From Candidatus Marinacidobacterales bacterium (GTDB lineage Bacteria; Acidobacteriota; Vicinamibacteria; Marinacidobacterales; DATDRI01), in contig OZ244742.1 of assembly GCA_965219415.1 (NCBI GenBank), positions 1,472,001 through 1,536,000 on the forward strand: a DNA stretch of 64,000 bases. The letters run 5' to 3'. Every line of letters starts with the position of its first letter. Positions within the stretch are counted from its first letter, which is position 1. The position numbers were made by a program, and so were the translations under genes. Below the pieces are notes generated by a model. That model did not search any database, was not told the origin of the DNA, and saw nothing but the letters and a program-made list of their open reading frames with translations. This document shows, piece by piece, positions 2,456 to 11,502 of the stretch.

Positions 2456-3466
2456 CTACGATGAAACGTGCGGGGCCTGCCGATCCCAGCTAAAAACCGG
2501 GAATCGGAGCACGGTCCGAAAGCCCATTGATTCGTAGAGCGAGACGGCCCTCTCGTTGGTGTCACTCACCATGAGAGAGACGGTGAGGTAGCCGGCTCGG
2601 GTCAAGGCATCGATTGCGCGACCGAGAAGGAGTTTGCCCAAACCCAAACCCTGAGCGGACGGACTAACCGCGACCTGCGCAAAATGGGCGTGTCGAGGCG
2701 AAATTTCAGTCGCCACGATGAATCCAGAAAGCATTCTGGACTCCGGACGTTGAGCGACCGACGAGGCCATCGGAATCGGTTCTCCACATCCCTGCAGTTG
2801 AACAATGTTTTCCAGCAAGGTGCGGCACCCCTCTGGCTTTCGGTACAGCTCGTTCATCTCGGCGTCCACCCTCCCGTCATGTGCTTGCTGCATCAGCAAG
2901 GCGGCGCGCGACAGGTAAGAGGAGCTCCAAGGCTTGAACTCGAACAAATGACTACCGGAAGAGCTCGAGACGCTAGCCTGAAGTTCGCGGCGTAGGAACG
3001 CTCGGTCATGCGCTCGAAACCCTTCAGCCAAAAACGCGTCTCGCAACCAAGGAAGGCCGAAGGGTATGAACTGACTTTCGACGCGTGTGACCGCGCCCTC
3101 CGCCTGCACAGCCTTTACAGATTGCACCGACGCAATGAGACTCGCAGCGAGCGGAAGTCCTATCGTTGGAACTCTCGCGTCAGGTGCAAGCATGAAACTT
3201 CCTAGCACCGCCCGTTTGCCATCCACGATGTAGTACCCGCAGCCAACGACCTCGTCCCCGACTCGAATGGCTCTTCCAGCAAGGCTCCGTCTCTTCACGG
3301 CGTCCCGGACGACTGAAATGGCGGGCGTGGTGTCCCACAAGAGCTCACTTTGCCAGAATCTTCTCTCCTCGGCCCACAGACTCTCGAGGTGCGCGGGGCG
3401 CAATCCGACCAAATCGACGATCTCAGCCAGCGAAGTTTCGGTGGTAGTAAGGAAGGGGCCGGCCAT
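2456..3466 (-). CDS. GNAT family N-acetyltransferase (tandem GNAT)
   Basis: VAVSPSAQGLGLG acetyl-CoA motif; N..AVSLYESMGF. Confidence 0.85.
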   Translation of the reverse strand: MAGPFLTTTETSLAEIVDLVGLRPAHLESLWAEERRFWQSELLWDTTPAISVVRDAVKRRSLAGRAIRVGDEVVGCGYYIVDGKRAVLGSFMLAPDARVPTIGLPLAASLIASVQSVKAVQAEGAVTRVESQFIPFGLPWLRDAFLAEGFRAHDRAFLRRELQASVSSSSGSHLFEFKPWSSSYLSRAALLMQQAHDGRVDAEMNELYRKPEGCRTLLENIVQLQGCGEPIPMASSVAQRPESRMLSGFIVATEISPRHAHFAQVAVSPSAQGLGLGKLLLGRAIDALTRAGYLTVSLMVSDTNERAVSLYESMGFRTVLRFPVFSWDRQAPHVSS

Positions 3467-3584
3467 TGTGCAAGAACCTGAACGATTCTAACAGAGTCTC
3501 GAGGTAAGGCGGCAAGTCCTTGTTTCGTCGTTTTTGACAATCTGGCGGAATCGAAGGATCTTTGGTTCGGAGGTTGGATTGGAC

Positions 3585-4469
3585 ATGACCGCTTCTCGGA
3601 AGAGCGCACCTTTGACTTTCGTCTTATTGATGAGCATCGGCTATTCGGTCACACCGCCGCCGCTCCTCGCCGCCTTACCCCTCGCCTCCCCAACTGCGCA
3701 GGCGACGATCCCGGCCAGAACCTTCACCGGCCCGGACGGGAACCCCCTGCCCTTCGAGAACGACGACGAGATGATGAAATTTCTCAAAACAGCCAAGGTG
3801 ACGAAACGGTCTGACATTGGTACAGGGATCAATCGCTTCAAGAAATTGACGCTTAAGAAGGACGGCGTGCAAGCGCATGCGATCTTCCGTGATGCCGACG
3901 TGACGGAGCACAACATCCGGGTAGGAGATCGGCGCTACCGCGTTTTCCGCGACAGCTACCTCTTCGAATGCGCCTCTTACGATCTGGGCCAGTTGCTCGG
4001 AATTACCAAGATACCGCCGGTCGTGCTGCGGCGCCTCGGTCGGACCGAGGGCAGCCTCCAGCTATGGATCGAAGACGTTCGAGACGAAAAACACGAGGCC
4101 TTCGCGCCACCGTCCGCCCTCGCTTGGGCGCGGCAGGTCCAAGAAATGCGCTTGTTCGATAACCTCATCTTCAACGTGGATCGGAACCCGGGAAACATCC
4201 TCGTGACTCACGACTACACGTTGATCTTGATCGATCAAACGCGAGGATTTCAAGAGGTCGCCGCTCTTCTCGAACCAGAGGGCGTCTCTCACGTGAAACG
4301 GGCGACCTGGGACAAGCTACAGAGTGTCTCCGAATCGGAGCTCCGCGACGTGGTCAGACCGTACCTGACCGTTGGGGAGCTCAACGCGCTAGTTGCGCGG
4401 TGGAAGCTGATGGTTCAGCGTTTCGAAGAGTTGATAGAGAACCGGAGCGAGGAGCTCGTCGTCTATTAG
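3585..4469 (+). CDS. Putative exported PI3/4-kinase-like (atypical kinase fold) protein
   Basis: GGAGG RBS; N-terminal hydrophobic segment; GSLQLW, FDNLIFNVDRNPGNIL, LIDQ motifs. Confidence 0.6.
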   Translation: MTASRKSAPLTFVLLMSIGYSVTPPPLLAALPLASPTAQATIPARTFTGPDGNPLPFENDDEMMKFLKTAKVTKRSDIGTGINRFKKLTLKKDGVQAHAIFRDADVTEHNIRVGDRRYRVFRDSYLFECASYDLGQLLGITKIPPVVLRRLGRTEGSLQLWIEDVRDEKHEAFAPPSALAWARQVQEMRLFDNLIFNVDRNPGNILVTHDYTLILIDQTRGFQEVAALLEPEGVSHVKRATWDKLQSVSESELRDVVRPYLTVGELNALVARWKLMVQRFEELIENRSEELVVY

Positions 4470-4516: not shown

Positions 4517-5524
4517 CTACGGTGAGAAAACCAAGCGAACGAGCGGGAATCCCGCTGTACGAACGAAGCGGATCTTGCCGCGATTGCGATAGAAAAGAAC
4601 CCCCTCCACACCGAATCGCCTCCACAGGTCGAGCGCACCGTCCGGCCCTACAACAAAACCGGCGGTCGACAAAGCATCGACCGTCATCGCTTCTCCTAGG
4701 TTGCCGACAACGGTCGCCGACACGGAATCCTTCACCGGCCATCCGGTACGTGGGTCGATGATGTGTGACAACCAGACGCCATCCTCCTCGAACCCTTGCT
4801 CGTCGCCTGCCGATGTCGAAACGCAACCTTCTTCGATCTGGAGCTTGACGCGGGGGGCGTTTCGAGGGAAGAATATCGCCCCGGTCGGCGCATAGCCAAA
4901 AAGAGCAACGCTGCTCTCCCCGAGGTCGACCATCGCCCGTTGAGCCCCGGCCGCCCTGAGGTTGGCGAGCGCCTTGTCCACCGCGTATCCCTTGGTGAGT
5001 CCTCCCAAATCGATCTCAACTCCATCCGCCGCGAGCTCGACCGATGACGTAGTCGGATCGAGGCGAATCTGCCGAAACCCCACCCGAGTGTGAGCGTTTG
5101 CGAGCATGATCCGCGCCGGAACCTCACCCCCTCCACGATAAAAGCCCCACATCCTTACGACGGAACCAATGGTGGGATCGAAGGCGCCGCCCGATCGATT
5201 CGCGACACGAATCGCCTCGCTCAGGACGTCGTAGGTCGAATCAGAAAGCGGAAAGGGAGTATTGGAGGGCTCCCGGTTCAACCGATTCAACTCACTGTCC
5301 TCGCGGTAGAGGCTCATGAGTCGGTCGACCGATTCTAGCTCTCTGTAGGCGAGGGCGATGGCCGCATCCAGCGCGGGCTCCTCGAGTCCGCATGCCTCGA
5401 TGCGCGCAACCGTGCCCATGACGTAGAAAGCCTGCTCGCGGCATTGGGGCGGGTCGGGGGGTGGGTCGAGCGACGGGTTGGCCGCGATCGCCCCGACCAT
5501 CGCAAGCCAGGAAACAATCGACAC
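4517..5524 (-). CDS. apbE: FAD:protein FMN transferase ApbE
   Basis: VMGT, FDPTIG, IDLGGLTKGYAVD, STS, HIIDPRTGWP, DALST motifs. Confidence 0.92.
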   Translation of the reverse strand: MSIVSWLAMVGAIAANPSLDPPPDPPQCREQAFYVMGTVARIEACGLEEPALDAAIALAYRELESVDRLMSLYREDSELNRLNREPSNTPFPLSDSTYDVLSEAIRVANRSGGAFDPTIGSVVRMWGFYRGGGEVPARIMLANAHTRVGFRQIRLDPTTSSVELAADGVEIDLGGLTKGYAVDKALANLRAAGAQRAMVDLGESSVALFGYAPTGAIFFPRNAPRVKLQIEEGCVSTSAGDEQGFEEDGVWLSHIIDPRTGWPVKDSVSATVVGNLGEAMTVDALSTAGFVVGPDGALDLWRRFGVEGVLFYRNRGKIRFVRTAGFPLVRLVFSP

Positions 5525-5546
5525 GTGCGCGCCTATCGCGACCGAA

Positions 5547-6131
5547 CTAACGGGAAGGGTCTTTCGTTCCGACCGAAACGAGGCGATCCTCGGCGCCGGT
5601 TTTCTTAGGTATCAAAATCTCGCGAGTCATTGCCCGCCCGTTGTGTCCGTTGGGAGGCGAGCCACTCCAGAGATTCCATGCGACGACAACGAGGAGCGTG
5701 CCGAGCAGTGCCTCGAGAGCAAAGAACCCCACGATCTTGACCGGAGCAAGAGAGGGGCCGACGAATCGCACCAGCCAACCTCCCGACTCAGAGGCAATCG
5801 CCGCACCGAAGGTGGCCCAAACGAAAAAGAGCTTCAGACCCTTTCCAAAAGGCGAAAAGATCACCAAGTGCGTCAACACGAGCAGCACCATCGCCATCAT
5901 GGCGAGGTGAGCGTGGGTGACTTCGAGCATCGACCCCATGGTTCGCGGCGGTAGGAACTCCTCCTCCGAACCATTGTAATAACTGACGACGGATTCCGGA
6001 CTCAGTCCCATTTTCGATAAGTATAGAACGAGGTTCGTTACCCAAAACCCCACAAGCAACAGCAACGTCAGCCCGATGGTCAATCGCATCAAAGGGTGGT
6101 TTTGGAAACCGCCGGATTCCATGTATTTCAC
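5547..6131 (-). CDS. 4-TM inner membrane protein with intramembrane His residues (possible cytochrome b)
   Basis: Four hydrophobic helices; THAHL...LTHL; coupled (GTGA overlap) to the upstream gene. Confidence 0.65.
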   Translation of the reverse strand: MKYMESGGFQNHPLMRLTIGLTLLLLVGFWVTNLVLYLSKMGLSPESVVSYYNGSEEEFLPPRTMGSMLEVTHAHLAMMAMVLLVLTHLVIFSPFGKGLKLFFVWATFGAAIASESGGWLVRFVGPSLAPVKIVGFFALEALLGTLLVVVAWNLWSGSPPNGHNGRAMTREILIPKKTGAEDRLVSVGTKDPSR

Positions 6132-6694
6132 GACCCGCCCTCTCCTCCGAGAACTGTGTAAAGGGCCAGCGCACGACGGACGCTTGCCGCCAGAGCTCTC
6201 ACCGTCAGTGTGGCACCAGTGACCCGCACGAGATGGCGTCCCACGATCATGTCATCGGTCAATTCCTGATCATTCATTCGGTCCAGCCAACTCTGCCTAA
6301 CCTTGTAGTCCTCCGGTTCGTAAAACGCGAGAATCTCCACTCGACGCACCGTACCGTCTGGCTTCACCAAGACCATGACCGTCTCCGTGGTGGTGCGCAC
6401 GACGTGGGTGTCGAAGAATGCGGCTCCCGCGGGTCGGCCGTCTTCATCGACTCCGACGTAGTAGTGGACGATCTTGGAATCGAGCCGCGCTCGTGCCAAG
6501 CCTTCGATCTCCTTCGCCTGCTCGTCGGTGAGAAAAACGGACTTCCGTTCGATCGCTCCACCTGGAAACGCCTCCGCCAAAGCCTGCTTCTGCGTCTTAT
6601 AGAGACCACCTCGGAGCTCACCGGGAAGAATGGAAACGATCGCTGCCAATCCCCAGACGAGTCGCGTCTGACGCCAATCCCCGAATCGTTGCAT
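6128..6694 (-). CDS. FMN-binding domain protein (ApbE substrate)
   Basis: Signal-like N-terminus; C-terminal flavinylation motif VTGATLT. Confidence 0.8.
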   Translation of the reverse strand: MQRFGDWRQTRLVWGLAAIVSILPGELRGGLYKTQKQALAEAFPGGAIERKSVFLTDEQAKEIEGLARARLDSKIVHYYVGVDEDGRPAGAAFFDTHVVRTTTETVMVLVKPDGTVRRVEILAFYEPEDYKVRQSWLDRMNDQELTDDMIVGRHLVRVTGATLTVRALAASVRRALALYTVLGGEGGS

Positions 6695-6705
6695 TGCGTT
6701 CGACC

Positions 6706-8106
6706 CTAGAATTGATAACCGATTCCGAAGTTCCACTGGTTGGTTCCGGTGCCGGCTCGATTGCGGAAATTCTGGAAATCGAGCTTCAGCACGATGCTGT
6801 AGATCGGTTCCACCTCGAAGCCGAACGTGGTAACGGCTCGGTCGTTTACAGGGTTCCTAAGAAACCCGCCGGGCACCTCCGCTTGTGTGTCGAAGTCCTC
6901 GTAGCGAATGAACGGCGTCAGCGCCCAGGCCGCCCCGGTGTTTCCGAGACCAACGAATTCGTAAGCCCCCTCCAGATACCATCCCCGGAGCTCGGAGCCG
7001 ATCGACGAGGCACCGGTAAGGCCGAGGCTCTGGTTGATGAGCGCCGCTTCGCCGATCGTTCCCATCACGTAGAGTCCTCGGAGCTGTAGCCCCCGGTAGT
7101 TGTACTGACCATGGACATCGAACAGGCTGACCCGCCCGCCAATTGCGCTTCCAGTCAGCAACGTCTCTCCTTGACCCGAGTCACCGACGAAAAAGCTGCC
7201 GCCCACCAGAAAGCCGGGATAGCCGGTGAGATCCAGGCGGCCAGTCCAGCCGAAGTCCTGGGCGATGGATTTCGAGCCCTTTTGCCGACCGCCGCGAAGC
7301 CCGGAGCTGGGAGAGAAACCAGTGCTCGTCAGACCGACGACCACATAGGAGCGATAGGTGAAGGGACCTATGTCACCGAAAATGCCCCCTCCGTTCTCTC
7401 GCCAGGTGGTCGGAATGATGACCCTTTCCACCTGGGGCCGGGTGACTCCGTAGAAGACGGTCGGCTCGTGGAGCTCATTGAGAAAACCCACCGGTATCAA
7501 GACCATCCCGCCGCGAAAATTGAGCTGCGGACGATAGAGGAAGTCGAGGTATGCGAACTCCACCGAGACGACGCCCGACTTGTCGGTAGAGGCATGCTCG
7601 AATTCGATCTCCGAGTTGAAGAGGAATTGATCGTTCCACTTGTAGCCCAGGTAAACGATCGCCCTCAAGAAATCGAACTCATTCAGTGCACCGGAAGCCG
7701 ATCCGTCGTCGCTGTCCGTGGCCGGATTCTGAAAGATGGCCTCACCGTACCCACCGATGGAAGCGCCTCGTTCTACTCCATATATCTTGGAGGCAGATGG
7801 CGCCAAACCATATTGACCCCTTTGGCCCCTTTGACCCTTGCCGGGCTCCTGCTCCTCTTCCGCCACGGCTCCCAACTTCAGCCTCTCGATTTCTTCGCTC
7901 AGGAGTCGGATCTGCCGCTCGAGCTCCGCGAGGCGCTCCTCTTGGGACGGTGGATCCTTCTTCTCTTCCTTCTCTTCCTCTTCTGCCTTCTCGATGGTGA
8001 TGGCCGAGGCGGCCTCTGCCCAAGTGAGCAGGGCGAGTGCGCCCGAAAGAAGAGCGATCCCGAAAACCCTGCGAGTTCTCGGCGGTGTCACACTCTGGGG
8101 TGTCAT
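6706..8106 (-). CDS. Outer membrane beta-barrel porin (OprO/OprP-like)
   Basis: Signal peptide, coiled-coil linker, FNSEIEFEH, VEFAYLDF, amphipathic strands, terminal GYQF. Confidence 0.75.
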   Translation of the reverse strand: MTPQSVTPPRTRRVFGIALLSGALALLTWAEAASAITIEKAEEEEKEEKKDPPSQEERLAELERQIRLLSEEIERLKLGAVAEEEQEPGKGQRGQRGQYGLAPSASKIYGVERGASIGGYGEAIFQNPATDSDDGSASGALNEFDFLRAIVYLGYKWNDQFLFNSEIEFEHASTDKSGVVSVEFAYLDFLYRPQLNFRGGMVLIPVGFLNELHEPTVFYGVTRPQVERVIIPTTWRENGGGIFGDIGPFTYRSYVVVGLTSTGFSPSSGLRGGRQKGSKSIAQDFGWTGRLDLTGYPGFLVGGSFFVGDSGQGETLLTGSAIGGRVSLFDVHGQYNYRGLQLRGLYVMGTIGEAALINQSLGLTGASSIGSELRGWYLEGAYEFVGLGNTGAAWALTPFIRYEDFDTQAEVPGGFLRNPVNDRAVTTFGFEVEPIYSIVLKLDFQNFRNRAGTGTNQWNFGIGYQF

Positions 8107-8154
8107 GACTCTACCTCCACCGTTGTCTCTTCACGCCGCGGGCCCTTGGGGAAA

Positions 8155-8679
8155 CTAGTGCGAACGGGTGGACGCGTTTTTAACGCCGACCTTGGTCTTA
8201 CGACGGCTACTCTTTTTCTTCGAGCGCCGCTGATTGCACTTTTGGCAAACACCGAATATCTGATGCCGGTGCGAGTCGATGGTGAATCCGTAGGCCTCGG
8301 CAATTTCGTCCTGGAGCGTCTCGATCTCCTGACTCACGAACTCGATGATCGTGCCGCACTCGATGCAGATCATGTGATCGTGATGTGCATGTTTGTAGTG
8401 ATGCTCGAAACGAGTCAGCCCGTCTCGGAGCTCGATCGATTCCGCCAACTGCGCGTCACACAGAAGCTTCAGGGTTCGATAGATTGTGGTGCGACCGATC
8501 TCGCGGTGCTTGCGATGGATAACTCGATGGAGATCGTCGACCGTCATGTGGCCTCCGGTCTCCAAGAAGTACTGGAGGATCACTTCCCGCTGACGGGAGT
8601 GCTTCAGCCCATTGTTTGCGAGATACTCTTCGAGGACACGGAACTCTTCTCGACCGTGGGAGGACTTACTCGGTGTCAT
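8155..8679 (-). CDS. fur: Fur family transcriptional regulator
   Basis: TIYRTLKLL, HHDHMICIECG, GVCQKC. Confidence 0.92.
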   Translation of the reverse strand: MTPSKSSHGREEFRVLEEYLANNGLKHSRQREVILQYFLETGGHMTVDDLHRVIHRKHREIGRTTIYRTLKLLCDAQLAESIELRDGLTRFEHHYKHAHHDHMICIECGTIIEFVSQEIETLQDEIAEAYGFTIDSHRHQIFGVCQKCNQRRSKKKSSRRKTKVGVKNASTRSH

Positions 8680-9391
8680 CCGAGTCGCCTCCTCGCGGGC
8701 CTTCCCGGAGTACGTAAATATCTTCGGCCAACGCCTCTTCGAGCGCCAGTTGCGTCTCGTCGCATTCCAAGACGAACGCGGGCGACCGCTGGTGCAGCTT
8801 CACTTTGACTCCCGGGGTGAAACCGAAAGAAGAAAGCTTATGCAGTCTGGAGTAGTTCTTAGTATTGACATAAGCCACTCGCGCCGTCTCGCCGGTGTGC
8901 ATCTGGTTGGCACTGACCACCACTGCCTCGATGCTACGCCTCGTATCTTGGCAGCATCGTCCTTCGGGAATGGGCCGACCATGAGGGCACTGGCGCGGGT
9001 GGCCGAGCAGCGTACAGATGCTTTCGGTAATGCCGGGGGCAACGAGATGCTCGAACTCGCAAGCGTTGACCTCAATCTCGGGCATCGGCATGCGCAAAAT
9101 GTCGTTCACCAAACGTTCCGCGAGTCGGTGACGTCGAATGATGGCGCGGGCCCTTTCTCGACCGGACTCGGTGAAAACCAGCGAGCCGTCCTTTCGTTCT
9201 TCGATCAACGTTCGCGTCTTGAGCTCTTCGATGAGCTCCTCGGTCAAGGCGACGTCGACGACTTGGGCCAAATCCTCCCGCCGGGTCGCGCCTCGCTCGT
9301 CTCCTGTCCAAAGCGCCTCCAGGACTTCCTCGAGCGCCCGGTGCGGTGGTTGCGGAGAGCGACTGGTCTCGGTCGAGGTTGTGTCGTTCAT
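8666..9391 (-). CDS. DtxR/IdeR-type metal-dependent regulator with C-terminal FeoA domain
   Basis: RRHRLAERL, CEFEH, HPRQCPHGRPIP; FeoA-like GFTPGVKVKL; ATGA overlap with feoB stop. Confidence 0.85.
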   Translation of the reverse strand: MNDTTSTETSRSPQPPHRALEEVLEALWTGDERGATRREDLAQVVDVALTEELIEELKTRTLIEERKDGSLVFTESGRERARAIIRRHRLAERLVNDILRMPMPEIEVNACEFEHLVAPGITESICTLLGHPRQCPHGRPIPEGRCCQDTRRSIEAVVVSANQMHTGETARVAYVNTKNYSRLHKLSSFGFTPGVKVKLHQRSPAFVLECDETQLALEEALAEDIYVLREGPRGGDSDDTE

Positions 9392-11421
9392 AGCGGCAAA
9401 CCGGTCCAGCGCAGAAGGAAGTTCACCCCAGTGCCCACCGCGATGGCATAAGGAATGATGAAGCCCACCATGAGCGCGGCCTTGCGAAAATCGAGTTCCT
9501 TGATCATAACCAGGAAGTTCGCAACACAAGGGACGAACAAGGTCATGGTGACCAGAGAGACGATGATCTGCGTGTCATCCATCAAACCTTGGCGGGCCAG
9601 ATCGAATAAGCCTGCCGCACCGTAGTCGCGGCGGAGGAATCCCATCACAAAGGCCTCCCCGGCCTTGGCCGGCAAACCCAATAGACCCACCACCACGGGC
9701 TCCGCGGCCCCCACGATAAACGGCAGGATCGCGAGACGGTCCAAGACAAACAACACCACGGTTCCCAGAACGAATAGCGGTACCGCCTCCCTAAGGAACC
9801 ATCGTACGCGGGACCATGTTTTTCGAGCCAGGTTTCCCCACACCGGAAGTCGCATCGGGGGTAGCTCCACCATGAAGTCCGATCGACTACCGGGTAGGAT
9901 CTTGTCGGCGATCCACCCCACCACCAGAAGCTGCGACAACAAAATGCCGAAAAGAAAAAGTAAGGCGCCGAAGGAGACCCACGCGAGCATACCCAAGACC
10001 ACGCCGAGCTGAGCAGCGCAGGGCACCGCCAGGGCGAGGAGCAACGTAGCGAGAACGCGCTCCTTACGAGTAGACAGAATTCTCGTCGCAAGGGTAGCCA
10101 TGGTGACGCAGCCGAGCCCGAGCACCATCGGTAGCACCGCTTTCCCATTCAATCCCATGAAGCGAAACATTCGATCGGCGAGCACCGAGAGCCGAGGTAG
10201 ATAGCCGCTGTCTTCGAGAAATCCGAACGCCATGAAAAAAGTCGTCACCACCGGCAACACGATGGCCACCGAGTACGTGACGCCCATCGATATCGCACCG
10301 TACGGCCCCACCAAGAGATCATGGATAAAGGGAATCGGAAGGAACCGGTCGACCAGCCAAGTGACTCCCGGTACCAAGTAGGCGCCGAAGATGGTCTCTT
10401 CGACAAAATCCACCGCCGCACCGGCCCCGAAGACTCCTACAAAGTAGTACATAAAGAGCAAGGCGCCGATGAGGATGGGAAAACCAGTCAGCGGCTCTCG
10501 ACACAAGCGGCCGAGCCGATCGGCGAAGGCGGAAACTTCCCCACCTGTCACCTTCCGTAGGGTGCCGACCGTGGAGTCGATCCATTGGCTCCGCTCTTGA
10601 ACGATCGCGGCGGCGGCAGGACGGTGGTGTCTCTGCTGATAGAGCTCTAGAGAATGATTAATGGCGCGAAGCCGCGCGTCGCCGGTGAGTACAGGGAGGG
10701 TACCTTTGACTCCCTCGTCTCGAGACCATAGCCACTCCGCGAAGAGCCCCATGGGTAGTTGGCGGTCGCCATCGCCGCCAGCCGGGACGTTGTCTTTGAG
10801 CTCGGCGATCATCGCTTCCAACTGCGGTGAGGGATTGCGTGGAACCGCGGGTCTCGCGAGCGCCCTCTCCAAATCCACGATCCCGTGTCCTTCCGTCGCC
10901 ACCGTCTCGACCACCGGGATGCCAAATAGTCCACCGAGCGCCGCGAGGTCTACTTCTATGCCACGCTTCCTCGACTCGTCCGCCATATTGAGATCCAGGA
11001 CGGTGGGAAGACCGAGCTCTACAATTTGGATCAATAAAAGGAGGGTCCGGCGAATGTTCTTTGCGTCGGCCACCACCAAGACGATATCGGGACGCTCTGC
11101 GAGCAGAATGTCCCGAGTCACGCGCTCGTCCTCGGACTGCGGGACTAGGGAGTTCACCCCGGGGGTGTCGACGACCTCATAGCGCCTACCGCCGACCTCT
11201 GCGGTACCACGGGCGAGTGCCACGGTGGTCCCGGGGTAATTGGAAACGTAGACGTATTGGCCGGTAAGGCGGTTGAAGATGACGCTCTTGCCGACATTGG
11301 GGTTTCCCACCAACGCGATCTTGGCTTTGGTTGATTGACTTCCTTCGTGACGGGCCGGCGGGGCCTTGGTGGCTAGTTCGGGAAGGGCCGTCGTGTTGAG
11401 GCCGCTAGGCTCGGGTGGCAT
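9388..11421 (-). CDS. feoB: Ferrous iron transporter FeoB
   Basis: GNPNVGKS, NYPGTT, DTPG, NMAD GTPase motifs; LEDSGYLPR; ELPPMRLP. Confidence 0.97.
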   Translation of the reverse strand: MPPEPSGLNTTALPELATKAPPARHEGSQSTKAKIALVGNPNVGKSVIFNRLTGQYVYVSNYPGTTVALARGTAEVGGRRYEVVDTPGVNSLVPQSEDERVTRDILLAERPDIVLVVADAKNIRRTLLLLIQIVELGLPTVLDLNMADESRKRGIEVDLAALGGLFGIPVVETVATEGHGIVDLERALARPAVPRNPSPQLEAMIAELKDNVPAGGDGDRQLPMGLFAEWLWSRDEGVKGTLPVLTGDARLRAINHSLELYQQRHHRPAAAAIVQERSQWIDSTVGTLRKVTGGEVSAFADRLGRLCREPLTGFPILIGALLFMYYFVGVFGAGAAVDFVEETIFGAYLVPGVTWLVDRFLPIPFIHDLLVGPYGAISMGVTYSVAIVLPVVTTFFMAFGFLEDSGYLPRLSVLADRMFRFMGLNGKAVLPMVLGLGCVTMATLATRILSTRKERVLATLLLALAVPCAAQLGVVLGMLAWVSFGALLFLFGILLSQLLVVGWIADKILPGSRSDFMVELPPMRLPVWGNLARKTWSRVRWFLREAVPLFVLGTVVLFVLDRLAILPFIVGAAEPVVVGLLGLPAKAGEAFVMGFLRRDYGAAGLFDLARQGLMDDTQIIVSLVTMTLFVPCVANFLVMIKELDFRKAALMVGFIIPYAIAVGTGVNFLLRWTGLPL

Positions 11422-11443
11422 TTCGGCGTCCGTCCTGGGTGAA

Positions 11444-11462
11444 AATGAAAACCGATTTCAAC
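11444..11462. promoter_or_regulatory. Fur box-like operator upstream of feoB
   Basis: 7-1-7 inverted repeat TGAAAAC-C-GATTTCA (11446-11460) resembling TGATAAT-N-ATTATCA. Confidence 0.75.
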
Positions 11463-11472
11463 TTACCAGGCC

Positions 11473-11502
11473 AGTCTACCGGACGTCCCTGGCAAGTGTC
11501 AA
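11473..11502 (-). promoter_or_regulatory. Sigma-70 promoter of the feoB operon
   Basis: TTGACA-N18-TAGACT on the minus strand, just upstream of the Fur box. Confidence 0.7.

Follow-up and report, generated by a model that had tools for sequence, protein, structure and literature searches.

The 64,000-nucleotide (nt) stretch of DNA analyzed here (hereinafter the window; contig OZ244742.1, positions 1,472,001 to 1,536,000) comes from a Candidatus Marinacidobacterales bacterium of the phylum Acidobacteriota and contains seven minus-strand open reading frames (ORFs) arranged head to tail from 11421 down to 4517. In order, these are feoB, a gene for a DtxR-family protein with a FeoA domain, fur, a porin gene, a gene for an FMN_bind (flavin mononucleotide-binding) protein, a gene for a protein with four transmembrane helices (4-TM), and apbE (Table 1). 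An earlier note, made from the sequence alone, had read this array as a system for periplasmic reduction of Fe(III) coupled to import of Fe(II), and the comparative evidence presented below supports that reading: with a probability of a little under 60%, we propose that the genes form an operon that is repressed by iron and takes iron up reductively through both membranes.

Table 1. Genes and sequence features of the operon, with coordinates in the window
Feature	Coordinates	Strand	Evidence or remark
Sigma-70-type promoter, TTGACA-18 nt-TAGACT	11473..11502	-	10/12 matches; conserved in 4 orthologous loci
22-nt operator, candidate Fur box, with TGAAA/TTTCA inverted and repeated hexamers	11440..11461	-	Between the -10 element and the feoB start
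feoB, Fe(II) transporter	9388..11421	-	TIGR00437 406.8 bits (cut-off 315.65); FeoB_N 8.5e-53, Gate 1.2e-26, FeoB_C 2e-12
DtxR/IdeR-family protein with C-terminal FeoA (SH3-like) domain	8666..9391	-	Fe_dep_repr_C 2.5e-23, FeoA 6e-12
fur	8155..8679	-	PF01475 3.8e-32, 111.4 bits (cut-off 23.1)
Porin, exported, 16-strand	6706..8106	-	Predicted structure; no Pfam or NCBIfam match
FMN_bind protein, exported, RnfG/NqrC-like, predicted ApbE substrate	6128..6694	-	PF04205 27.5 bits (cut-off 22)
Flavinylation motif codons T159-G-A-T162	6209..6220	-	Alignment of homologs
4-TM inner-membrane protein, PF27139 (Aq_1264_TM)	5547..6131	-	No match in the Pfam version used; Atlas family label
Part of helix 2 with H73, H75 and H88 (E70 just before)	5868..5915	-	Conservation in homologs
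apbE, FAD (flavin adenine dinucleotide):protein FMN transferase	4517..5524	-	PF02424 2.2e-62, 211.4 bits (cut-off 25.6)

All seven ORFs lie where the earlier note had placed them, and they are as tightly coupled as it had described, with neighbors either overlapping or separated by no more than 48 nt. Thus, feoB and the DtxR-family gene share an ATGA overlap, the latter overlaps fur by 14 nt, the FMN and 4-TM genes share a GTGA overlap, and the 4-TM gene and apbE are 22 nt apart. The porin and FMN genes are separated by 11 nt if the FMN gene starts at the ATG at 6694, or overlap by 31 nt with the GTG listed at 6736. The 48-nt gap lies between fur and the porin gene; a GGAGG precedes the porin ATG, and no terminator or operator is visible within this gap, in line with the proposed continuity of the operon across this junction. 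Terminator-like sites within the operon as a whole (6 found against 7.2 expected) do not exceed chance. Upstream, the array is bordered by a divergent gene for a sugar-1-phosphate nucleotidyltransferase and, downstream, by a convergent gene.

The first three genes encode components of iron transport and regulation. The FeoB protein combines a G domain with the Gate and FeoB_C membrane domains, scores above the curated cut-off of TIGR00437, and is the single strong FeoB match recovered by tblastn in the 8.05-Mb genome, the second match being weak (51 bits) and of the GTPase type. The fur gene is the only FUR-family gene of the genome; the NCBIfam equivalog models for Fur, PerR, and Zur all score it under their cut-offs, with the Fur models scoring best. 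These single-copy claims are qualified by the state of the assembly, which comprises three contigs with 96.33% completeness and 8.45% contamination. As both the only strong feoB and the only fur of the genome lie in this operon, it is likely to be important to the cell. The operon has no stand-alone feoA, its FeoA domain instead forming the C-terminus of the DtxR-family protein. The N-terminal helix-turn-helix domain of this protein (PF01325) was not detected by Pfam, and phmmer aligns its residues 24-142 with residues 12-133 of IdeR. Ordinary DtxR repressors carry an SH3-like domain at the same position as the FeoA domain, and the protein could act as an additional metal regulator, as a FeoA-type partner of FeoB, or in both capacities.

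The 466-residue product of the fourth gene is, by its predicted fold, a porin. It begins with a hydrophobic leader at residues 14-32, followed by ASA, and its AlphaFold model (predicted local distance difference test [pLDDT] score 79.7) displays a barrel of 16 strands, a long loop after strand 5, and a long N-terminal periplasmic helix (residues 55-81). A Foldseek search with this model retrieves OmpC, OmpF, PorB, and OprP at E-values of 1e-12 to 1e-11 with a probability of 1.00. Sequence profiles place it less readily and make it no more than a distant relation of Porin_O_P (PF07396): the window protein has no match to that model, which is matched by 3 of 24 relatives (best 1.3e-7); a search of its profile against the sequences of solved structures returned nothing meaningful (best E-value 0.35); and the corresponding Atlas clusters, named 'Porin family protein', do not share a Pfam family, 19% of one cluster carrying Porin_O_P. 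Among 24 homologs with 40-83% identity, E166, E168, and E170 of strand 3 are invariant and, as they occupy alternate positions, share one face of the strand, while the adjacent H171 is retained in at least 90%. Likewise, N210, E211, H213, E214, and P215 are invariant and map to the long loop that joins strand 5 to strand 6, where classical porins have their eyelet loop. We speculate that these conserved Glu and His residues might impart selectivity for iron.

The profile of the exported FMN_bind protein encoded by the fifth gene matches the solved RnfG (9eri_G) over most of its length (2.3e-6), and the protein is recovered by PF04205 above the cut-off. The TGAT flavinylation motif proposed in the earlier note is conserved: all 23 aligned homologs preserve it in the general form [S/T/V/A]-G-A-[T/S], with G160 invariant, A161 in 22, and position 162 occupied by T in 22 and by S in the remaining one, whereas the first position can be T, S, V, or A. 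Following the ApbE literature, we take the last residue of the motif to be the FMN acceptor, which makes T162 the predicted site of attachment. Meheust et al. 2021 (PMC8238504), in its available text, quotes the motif as [S/T]GA[S/T] and reports that another substrate family is no longer flavinylated once the predicted Thr is replaced. Most homologs of the FMN protein have clear cleavable leaders. The ApbE of the window, itself an unambiguous member of PF02424, displays a short hydrophobic N-terminal stretch with no segment above the threshold of the hydropathy scan, and its homologs in Bacteroidota and Ignavibacteria bear N-terminal RRxFL leaders resembling those of the twin-arginine translocation pathway. 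The genome holds three apbE genes and two FMN_bind genes in all; the additional apbE genes are located at C3:1349734-1350633 and C3:1045192-1045875, and the other FMN_bind match (69.5 bits) at G000:C1:1892892-1893188 on the minus strand.

The 194-residue 4-TM protein encoded by the sixth gene has 270 homologs and its family 607 representative clusters (50% identity), in both cases at E≤0.001. The window protein has no local Pfam match at E≤0.01, and its placement in PF27139 (Aq_1264_TM), a Pfam family with no assigned function, comes from precomputed labels only: all 120 listed homologs, including the window's own cluster, carry the label PF27139.1, and Atlas clusters at a score of 0.94-0.96 carry it in 99-100% of their members. 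Its AlphaFold model (pLDDT 72.4) consists of four long helices with a short one in the first loop. Comparisons of this model recovered only generic relationships: the best Foldseek match in the PDB has an E-value of 0.28 (LTC4 synthase and similar proteins, TM-score about 0.38), and VIA-align over 48,161 chains peaked at a Z-score of 9.3 with generic helical bundles, neither naming nor excluding a family. A Pfam search with 21 relatives at E≤10 yielded only noise (Chloroa_b-bind in six, best 0.011; Ni_hydr_CYTB in one, E-value 0.62), and neither these nor the window protein matched families of the NapH-like, MsrQ-like, PepSY-like, DsbD, or NQR/RNF-like membrane classes. Nor does the protein belong with DUF4405 or cytochrome b561, for it has three conserved His, all in helix 2, as against the four heme-ligating His of those proteins.

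The conservation of the Aq_1264_TM protein is concentrated at one side of the membrane. The charge distribution predicts that both its termini are cytoplasmic, and C-terminal fusions to cytoplasmic domains (PilZ and DtxR_C-FeoA) agree with this. With that topology, Y51, Y52, G54, E56, R63, E70, H73, H75, E115, W119, R122, and K132, all of which are invariant, fall at the predicted periplasmic face, and H88 near the cytoplasmic end of helix 2. Single-domain representatives (gaps excluded) retain H73 in 95/104, H75 in 104/109, and H88 in 108/115. Unusual architectures were sought in 21 of the 150 listed representatives, which were picked for unusual length. In four proteins the 4-TM domain is fused to ApbE; in the one inspected in detail (P0136), an extra hydrophobic segment separates the two parts, which would place the ApbE part outside the cytoplasm. 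A further protein (P0128) has a C-terminal DtxR_C-FeoA segment resembling the second gene of the window, and this membrane-tethered fusion hints at a FeoA-type role for the DtxR-family protein. Another (P0124) has a C-terminal PilZ domain, hinting at control by c-di-GMP (cyclic diguanylate) in some lineages. In the 11 tandemly duplicated forms, the conserved His are partitioned between the copies: repeat 1 always has H73 and never H75 or H88, whereas repeat 2 always has both H75 and H88 and has H73 in a single case. Because of this split between copies, the most likely working form of the single-domain protein is a dimer, with a site composed of H73 from one protomer and H75 and H88 from the other. 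The pattern is compatible with a redox cofactor at the interface or with a metal-ion site, and does not decide between them.

The last four genes of the array constitute a module whose order and strand are conserved across at least nine phyla. A scan restricted to a single genome for each species recovered 528 loci encoding relatives of the 4-TM protein, of which the best 80 were searched by tblastn with the seven proteins of the window and provide the module counts given here, each limited to loci with enough flanking sequence. The groups represented are Acidobacteriota, Bacteroidota, Ignavibacteria, Elusimicrobiota, KSB1, Eisenbacteria, Gemmatimonadota, Caldithrix, and Nitrospira. In 73/75 loci, the 4-TM gene is immediately preceded by the FMN gene in the same orientation; the porin gene lies upstream of the 4-TM gene in 62/68, and apbE occurs within 4 kb of it in 39/56, being upstream in 19 and downstream in 20.

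This module is recurrently linked to iron genes. In the 43 loci with at least 6.5 kb of upstream and 5 kb of downstream sequence, 14 contain feoB, 11 contain fur, and 20 contain one or the other, with a chance expectation for a single-copy gene in such flanks of roughly 1% of loci (an estimate rather than a computed value). The linked loci span four or more phyla, and feoB is found on differing sides of the module. By lineage, feoB and fur are present, respectively, in three and six of 16 loci from Acidobacteriota, three and two of seven from Bacteroidota, five and none of six from Ignavibacteria, none and three of eight from Elusimicrobiota, and three and none of four from KSB1; the single loci from Eisenbacteria and Gemmatimonadota have neither. 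Additional neighbors include a FeoA cluster in seven loci, DtxR in four, and a TonB-dependent receptor, with antisense ORF artifacts of longest-ORF calling in GC-rich loci left out of these neighbor clusters. In an Ignavibacteriales locus (L031:5779-7101:+), an FTR1 permease fused to an FtrD-like domain is encoded directly upstream of the porin of the module. Ferrochelatase and HemL genes lie near the module in L053, heme-synthesis genes in the KSB1 loci, and a DUF4198 gene in L027; in some Elusimicrobiota loci, AhpC/TSA and DsbD adjoin it, and many loci have no informative neighbors. Hence, the association of the porin, FMN, and 4-TM homologs with each other and with iron genes, which the earlier note had proposed as a test, extends across phyla.

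The phyletic patterns add two further points. We considered whether Aq_1264_TM might replace FeoB as the importer, and found this unsupported, for 38/43 module-bearing genomes retain a strong match to FeoB_N. Within Acidobacteriota, Aq_1264_TM is present in only seven of 301 sampled genomes, including that of the window, and this patchy spread suggests that the module may travel as a mobile cassette. One match in a sampled acidobacterial genome (G006:C14:17477-17965) contains one in-frame TAG and could be a broken copy or reflect a sequencing error.

The porin family is more widespread in the same phylum, being found in 106/301 sampled genomes (103/298 when three unpublished genomes are excluded), and the loci that lack Aq_1264_TM bear on its function. 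We examined 20 porin loci from acidobacterial genomes without Aq_1264_TM (L084-L103). The FMN gene lies beside the porin gene in 18 and within about 1.2 kb of it in 19; apbE occurs in 15, a fur-like gene in eight, and feoB in none. In 19/20 of these loci, the slot after the FMN gene is occupied by a different 4-TM family (A5) of about 150 residues with invariant H41, H51, H69, H118, and H132 (e.g., L097:7878-8357:+ and L085:3219-3707:-). Searches with 11 of its members gave weak matches to cytochrome b561 in seven (best 8.3e-5, all below the cut-off) and to DUF4405 in two. The two families are mutually exclusive, the A5 profile being found in 19/20 porin loci and 0/80 Aq_1264 loci and the Aq_1264 profile in 0/20 porin loci, and they show no homology (hhalign probability 0.14%). 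Thus, Aq_1264_TM and a likely heme protein appear to replace each other in the same slot, which we read as both bringing electrons to the flavoprotein and which argues that this slot carries electrons. The earlier claim that the membrane protein feeds electrons to the FMN protein accordingly gains indirect backing from the exchange, whereas the 4-TM protein of the window shows no redox-cofactor signature of its own.

As to regulation, the promoter ahead of feoB would not be credible from a motif scan alone, which found two sites in 8 kb against 1.9 expected from shuffles. It becomes so because, in an alignment of the window with its three closest orthologous loci (L001-L003, with proteins 61-93% identical to those of the window), the -35 element is invariant and the -10 element nearly so within flanks that have diverged, which supports the promoter proposed in the earlier note. 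The 22-nt block downstream is the same in the window and L001, and L002 and L003 each have a single-base change. What had been called a Fur box is a conserved operator block that matches the classical Fur consensus only loosely. We infer that it is the operator of an autoregulated Fur, because the block is conserved, a related site precedes a bfd-ferritin gene pair, and fur is the sole FUR-family gene. That related site (G000:C1:1752637-1752663; approximately 2638-2664 of L081) was the closest of six others recovered by a genome scan for the block with up to five mismatches. It is an extended palindrome of TGAAA-type hexamers directly before the bfd (Fer2_BFD) and ferritin genes, and is probably a second site for the regulator of the feoB operator. 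Two other near-matches, one adjacent to an ORF for a peptidase M19 and the other at the end of an ORF for SpoIIE, look like chance occurrences. A pattern derived for the operator is circular with respect to its two source sites.

Fur-type sites are also enriched upstream of the module in other genomes. We searched for a 7-1-7 palindrome in the 260 nt that precede the first gene of each module block, with other 280-nt segments of the same loci as controls. Allowing one mismatch, it was found in 10/61 loci, as against 4/3160 control segments and 0/1220 shuffles; allowing two, the corresponding counts were 17/61, 24/3160, and 13/1220. The regions of L001-L003 were taken before fur rather than feoB and hence count as misses. 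The operator of the window departs from the palindrome at four positions, a variant that it shares with L006, L010, and L012. The classical 19-bp Fur consensus with up to five mismatches, which occurs in 6/61 upstream regions, was set aside as too strict for these phyla, and the 7-1-7 test was used in its place.

Taken together, these observations are consistent with the following scheme. When iron is scarce, the sole Fur would leave the operator at the conserved promoter and all seven genes would be made. The dedicated 16-strand porin would then admit iron to the periplasm, probably as small Fe(III) complexes but also as Fe(II). ApbE, acting outside the cytoplasm, would form the covalent bond between FMN and Thr162 in the exported RnfG-like protein, and Aq_1264_TM, as a dimer of four-helix bundles, would pass electrons from the quinol pool to this flavin. 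The flavoprotein would reduce Fe(III) to Fe(II) near the membrane, and FeoB would import the Fe(II), with the FeoA-type domain in the DtxR-family protein possibly linking FeoB to the module.

Several observations weigh against this proposal, beginning with the fact that neither feoB nor fur occurs in the flanks of 23/43 Aq_1264-type loci, and that feoB is absent from all 20 loci of the cytochrome-b type. Five of the 43 module-bearing genomes have no strong FeoB_N match, these being metagenome-assembled with completeness not given. Charged eyelet residues are common to porins generally, and their conservation in the window's porin is no proof of iron selectivity. On the regulatory side, only one of the six further operator sites is iron-linked, and a similar number is expected by chance, by our estimate; the 7-1-7 pattern was widened after the sites had been seen, albeit with the identical pattern applied to the controls, and the operator of the window itself is among those that deviate from it. 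The lack of a recognizable cofactor signature in Aq_1264_TM, its three His on a single helix, the His pattern of its tandem forms, and its fusion to a FeoA domain, all taken up below, likewise count against the proposal. Finally, we found no experiment on any member of the module.

The most serious of the competing explanations, which accounts for part of the data just as well but which we nevertheless consider unlikely, keeps the purpose of iron uptake and changes the role of the membrane protein: Aq_1264_TM would handle Fe(II) rather than electrons, as a His/Glu metal site or channel facing the periplasm, or as an adaptor that would dock the flavoprotein and pass Fe(II) on to FeoB by way of a FeoA-type domain, and the donor to the flavin would be encoded elsewhere. 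The residues at the predicted periplasmic face invite this interpretation, for E70, H73, H75, E115, W119, and R122 are accompanied there by an acidic loop (YYxGSEEE), with H88 near the cytoplasmic end of the helix. The tandem forms, which keep one each of the three His, are what a single ion site or path would require and, with E70 and E115, fit such a site or path as well as they fit a cofactor. Three conserved His on one helix are also fewer than the four that a two-heme transmembrane wire needs. No cofactor signature is recognizable in the family: Pfam at E<0.01 recovers none, Foldseek and VIA-align return only generic four-helix bundles, and no similarity to a cytochrome or a quinone site emerged from Pfam, the fold searches, or hhalign. 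The natural fusion to DtxR_C-FeoA, known from the single protein P0128, is also compatible with an adaptor of FeoB. Moreover, the available text of PMC8238504 accepts P19-type clusters without a membrane carrier of their own. Set against all this is primarily the cytochrome-b-like protein in the same slot of 19/20 loci, the simplest reading of which is that the two proteins do the same job; in addition, the module is frequently far from any feoB, no other membrane redox protein is conserved beside it, and fusions to ApbE are found in four proteins as against one to FeoA. Mainly because of the displacement by the cytochrome-b-like protein, we give an electron-carrying Aq_1264_TM about three times the weight of a metal-handling one.

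Less probable still is the possibility that the system is an iron-sparing device, in which the flavin carrier would replace iron-rich periplasmic carriers and deliver electrons to some other acceptor admitted by the porin, the link to Fur and Feo reflecting shared regulation. Such a device would also come under Fur-type control, if that control is counted as real, and would account for the 23 loci of 43 with neither an iron transporter nor fur nearby, as well as for the AhpC/TSA and DsbD neighbors in some Elusimicrobiota. The Discussion of PMC8238504, as available, raises the idea that iron-poor settings may favor flavinylated carriers. It does not, however, readily explain why the module repeatedly adjoins two unrelated importers (FeoAB and FTR1-FtrD) as well as ferrochelatase and heme genes, often within a block on the same strand, or why a fusion to a FeoA domain exists; further, the neighborhood of the module shows no recurring terminal reductase or other enzyme that could act as acceptor. 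A dissimilatory outward conduit, in which the porin would sheathe or dock the flavoprotein so that electrons exit to extracellular Fe(III) minerals as in porin-cytochrome complexes, is very improbable: the porin is invariably accompanied by a periplasmic redox protein, and its conserved periplasmic N-terminal helix could reach a partner, and several carrier lineages, such as Ignavibacteria and Holophagales, are known for metal reduction, but a protein of about 160 residues with a single FMN is unable to bridge the outer membrane, the barrel resembles 16-strand diffusion porins and not the larger sheaths of porin-cytochrome complexes, and both the Fur-type sites and the proximity to importers speak for assimilation.

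If reductive uptake is accepted, a more far-reaching form of it can be stated, which we regard as rather doubtful when taken in its entirety. In this form, Aq_1264_TM would represent a new class of dimeric quinol:flavoprotein oxidoreductases with iron-poor or iron-free cofactors, docking the flavoprotein on its periplasmic side and FeoB on its cytoplasmic side via a FeoA-type domain. Together with the Glu/His-lined porin, it would constitute an assembly across the envelope in which Fe(III) reduction is directly coupled to Fe(II) import, as an iron-cheap alternative to the version with the cytochrome-b-like protein.

The problem addressed by such a system is a general one. FeoB imports only Fe(II), whereas most environmental iron is Fe(III), and how FeoB is fed in Gram-negative bacteria without known ferric reductases is largely an open question. 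The proposed operon would furnish a complete route comprising a pore, a reductase, a loader of its cofactor, and an importer, and would provide a first function for an unclassified porin family and for a Pfam family whose name merely refers to an Aquifex ORF. Its potential reach is considerable, with the Aq_1264_TM form in at least 528 loci and a homolog of the porin in about a third of the sampled Acidobacteriota. The exchange between Aq_1264_TM and the cytochrome-b-like protein offers a natural comparison for the delivery of electrons to periplasmic flavoproteins, and the components of the module are small and expressible, making the idea directly testable.

Two ORFs beyond the end of the operon may be recorded here. 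The convergent neighbor of apbE (window 3534-4469, plus strand) encodes a protein of 311 residues with a hydrophobic N-terminus and weak kinase-like matches (SCO1664 family, 6.2e-11; Fam20C, 0.0019), both below their cut-offs. Next to it, a minus-strand ORF (window 2456-3466) encodes a 336-residue protein with a GNAT acetyltransferase domain confined to its last approximately 90 residues and a long N-terminal part that has no family match.

Among known systems, the Rnf and Nqr complexes contain a homolog of the flavoprotein, RnfG/NqrC, the similarity covering most of the protein and extending to the flavinylated motif. The operon encodes no other subunits of these complexes, and here the protein is free-standing, exported, and paired with a porin and a 4-TM protein. 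The porin is similarly comparable to OprP/OprO and to general 16-strand porins in fold, strand number, and the long loop at the eyelet position after strand 5; it differs from them in the Glu/His-rich set of conserved residues in its lumen, its coiled-coil-like N-terminal helix, and the fixed location of its gene beside that of the flavoprotein. A functional parallel is provided by the flavin-based extracellular electron transfer system of Listeria (Ndh2, EetA/EetB, PplA, and FmnB), in which cofactor-poor membrane proteins link the quinone pool to a flavinylated protein with Fe(III) as acceptor. That system is respiratory and Gram-positive, has no porin, and is not known to be linked to Feo or Fur or to have membrane parts homologous to Aq_1264_TM. 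The two have in common ApbE-type flavinylation of an extracytosolic protein, predicted in the case of the window, and small membrane partners without obvious cofactors, and differ in that the module of the window has a porin, is linked to Feo and Fur, and has a proposed assimilatory role.

The small membrane cytochromes associated with flavinylation, DUF4405 and FezC, have been described by Huang et al. 2024 (PMC11334425), in the available text of which the heme sites of FezC are proposed to form through homodimerization, and 'Feo' and 'porin' are not found. Aq_1264_TM resembles FezC in being a small membrane protein encoded beside flavinylation genes for which no electron carrier had been known, and in the dimer that its tandem forms also suggest; it differs from DUF4405/FezC in having no sequence or profile similarity to them and three His on one helix in place of four central His. 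The A5 family of the sister form of the module looks nearer than Aq_1264_TM to this class, with weak matches only.

The closest precedents for the whole are the flavinylation-associated gene clusters described by Meheust et al. 2021 (PMC8238504). The available text of that study distinguishes five membrane classes for uncharacterized flavinylated systems, namely NapH-like, MsrQ-like, PepSY-like, DsbD, and NQR/RNF-like, and reports the co-localization of flavinylation genes with iron transporters (P19/FTR1, VIT1), which it reads as iron reduction for assimilation. The iron-linked clusters comprise PepSY-like/DUF2271/DUF4198, MsrQ-like, DsbD/DUF3570, NQR/RNF-like with VIT1, and P19/FTR1 with FMN_bind types. 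We found no paper naming PF27139 or Aq_1264 in the literature searched, nor a description of the composition of porin, Aq_1264_TM, FeoB, and Fur, although the supplementary tables of PMC8238504, in whose available main text 'FeoB' and 'porin' are absent, may list such clusters. A study of Riemerella, in its available part, lists an iron-responsive ApbE, and a study of copper in Desulfovibrio reports an induced ApbE, in neither case with the module. Within the literature searched, the architecture thus remains uncharacterized, as the earlier note had supposed. The window shares with the clusters of PMC8238504, as far as its available text describes them, an ApbE (putatively extracytosolic in the window), an [S/T]GA[S/T] protein, a small membrane partner, an adjacent iron transporter, and the proposal of reductive uptake; it departs from them in the identity of the membrane protein (PF27139), in a dedicated porin as a core component, and in FeoB as the transporter. 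Hence, flavin-based reduction of iron beside an importer is already known as a bioinformatic proposal, and what appears to be new in the window is the composition through which it might be accomplished.

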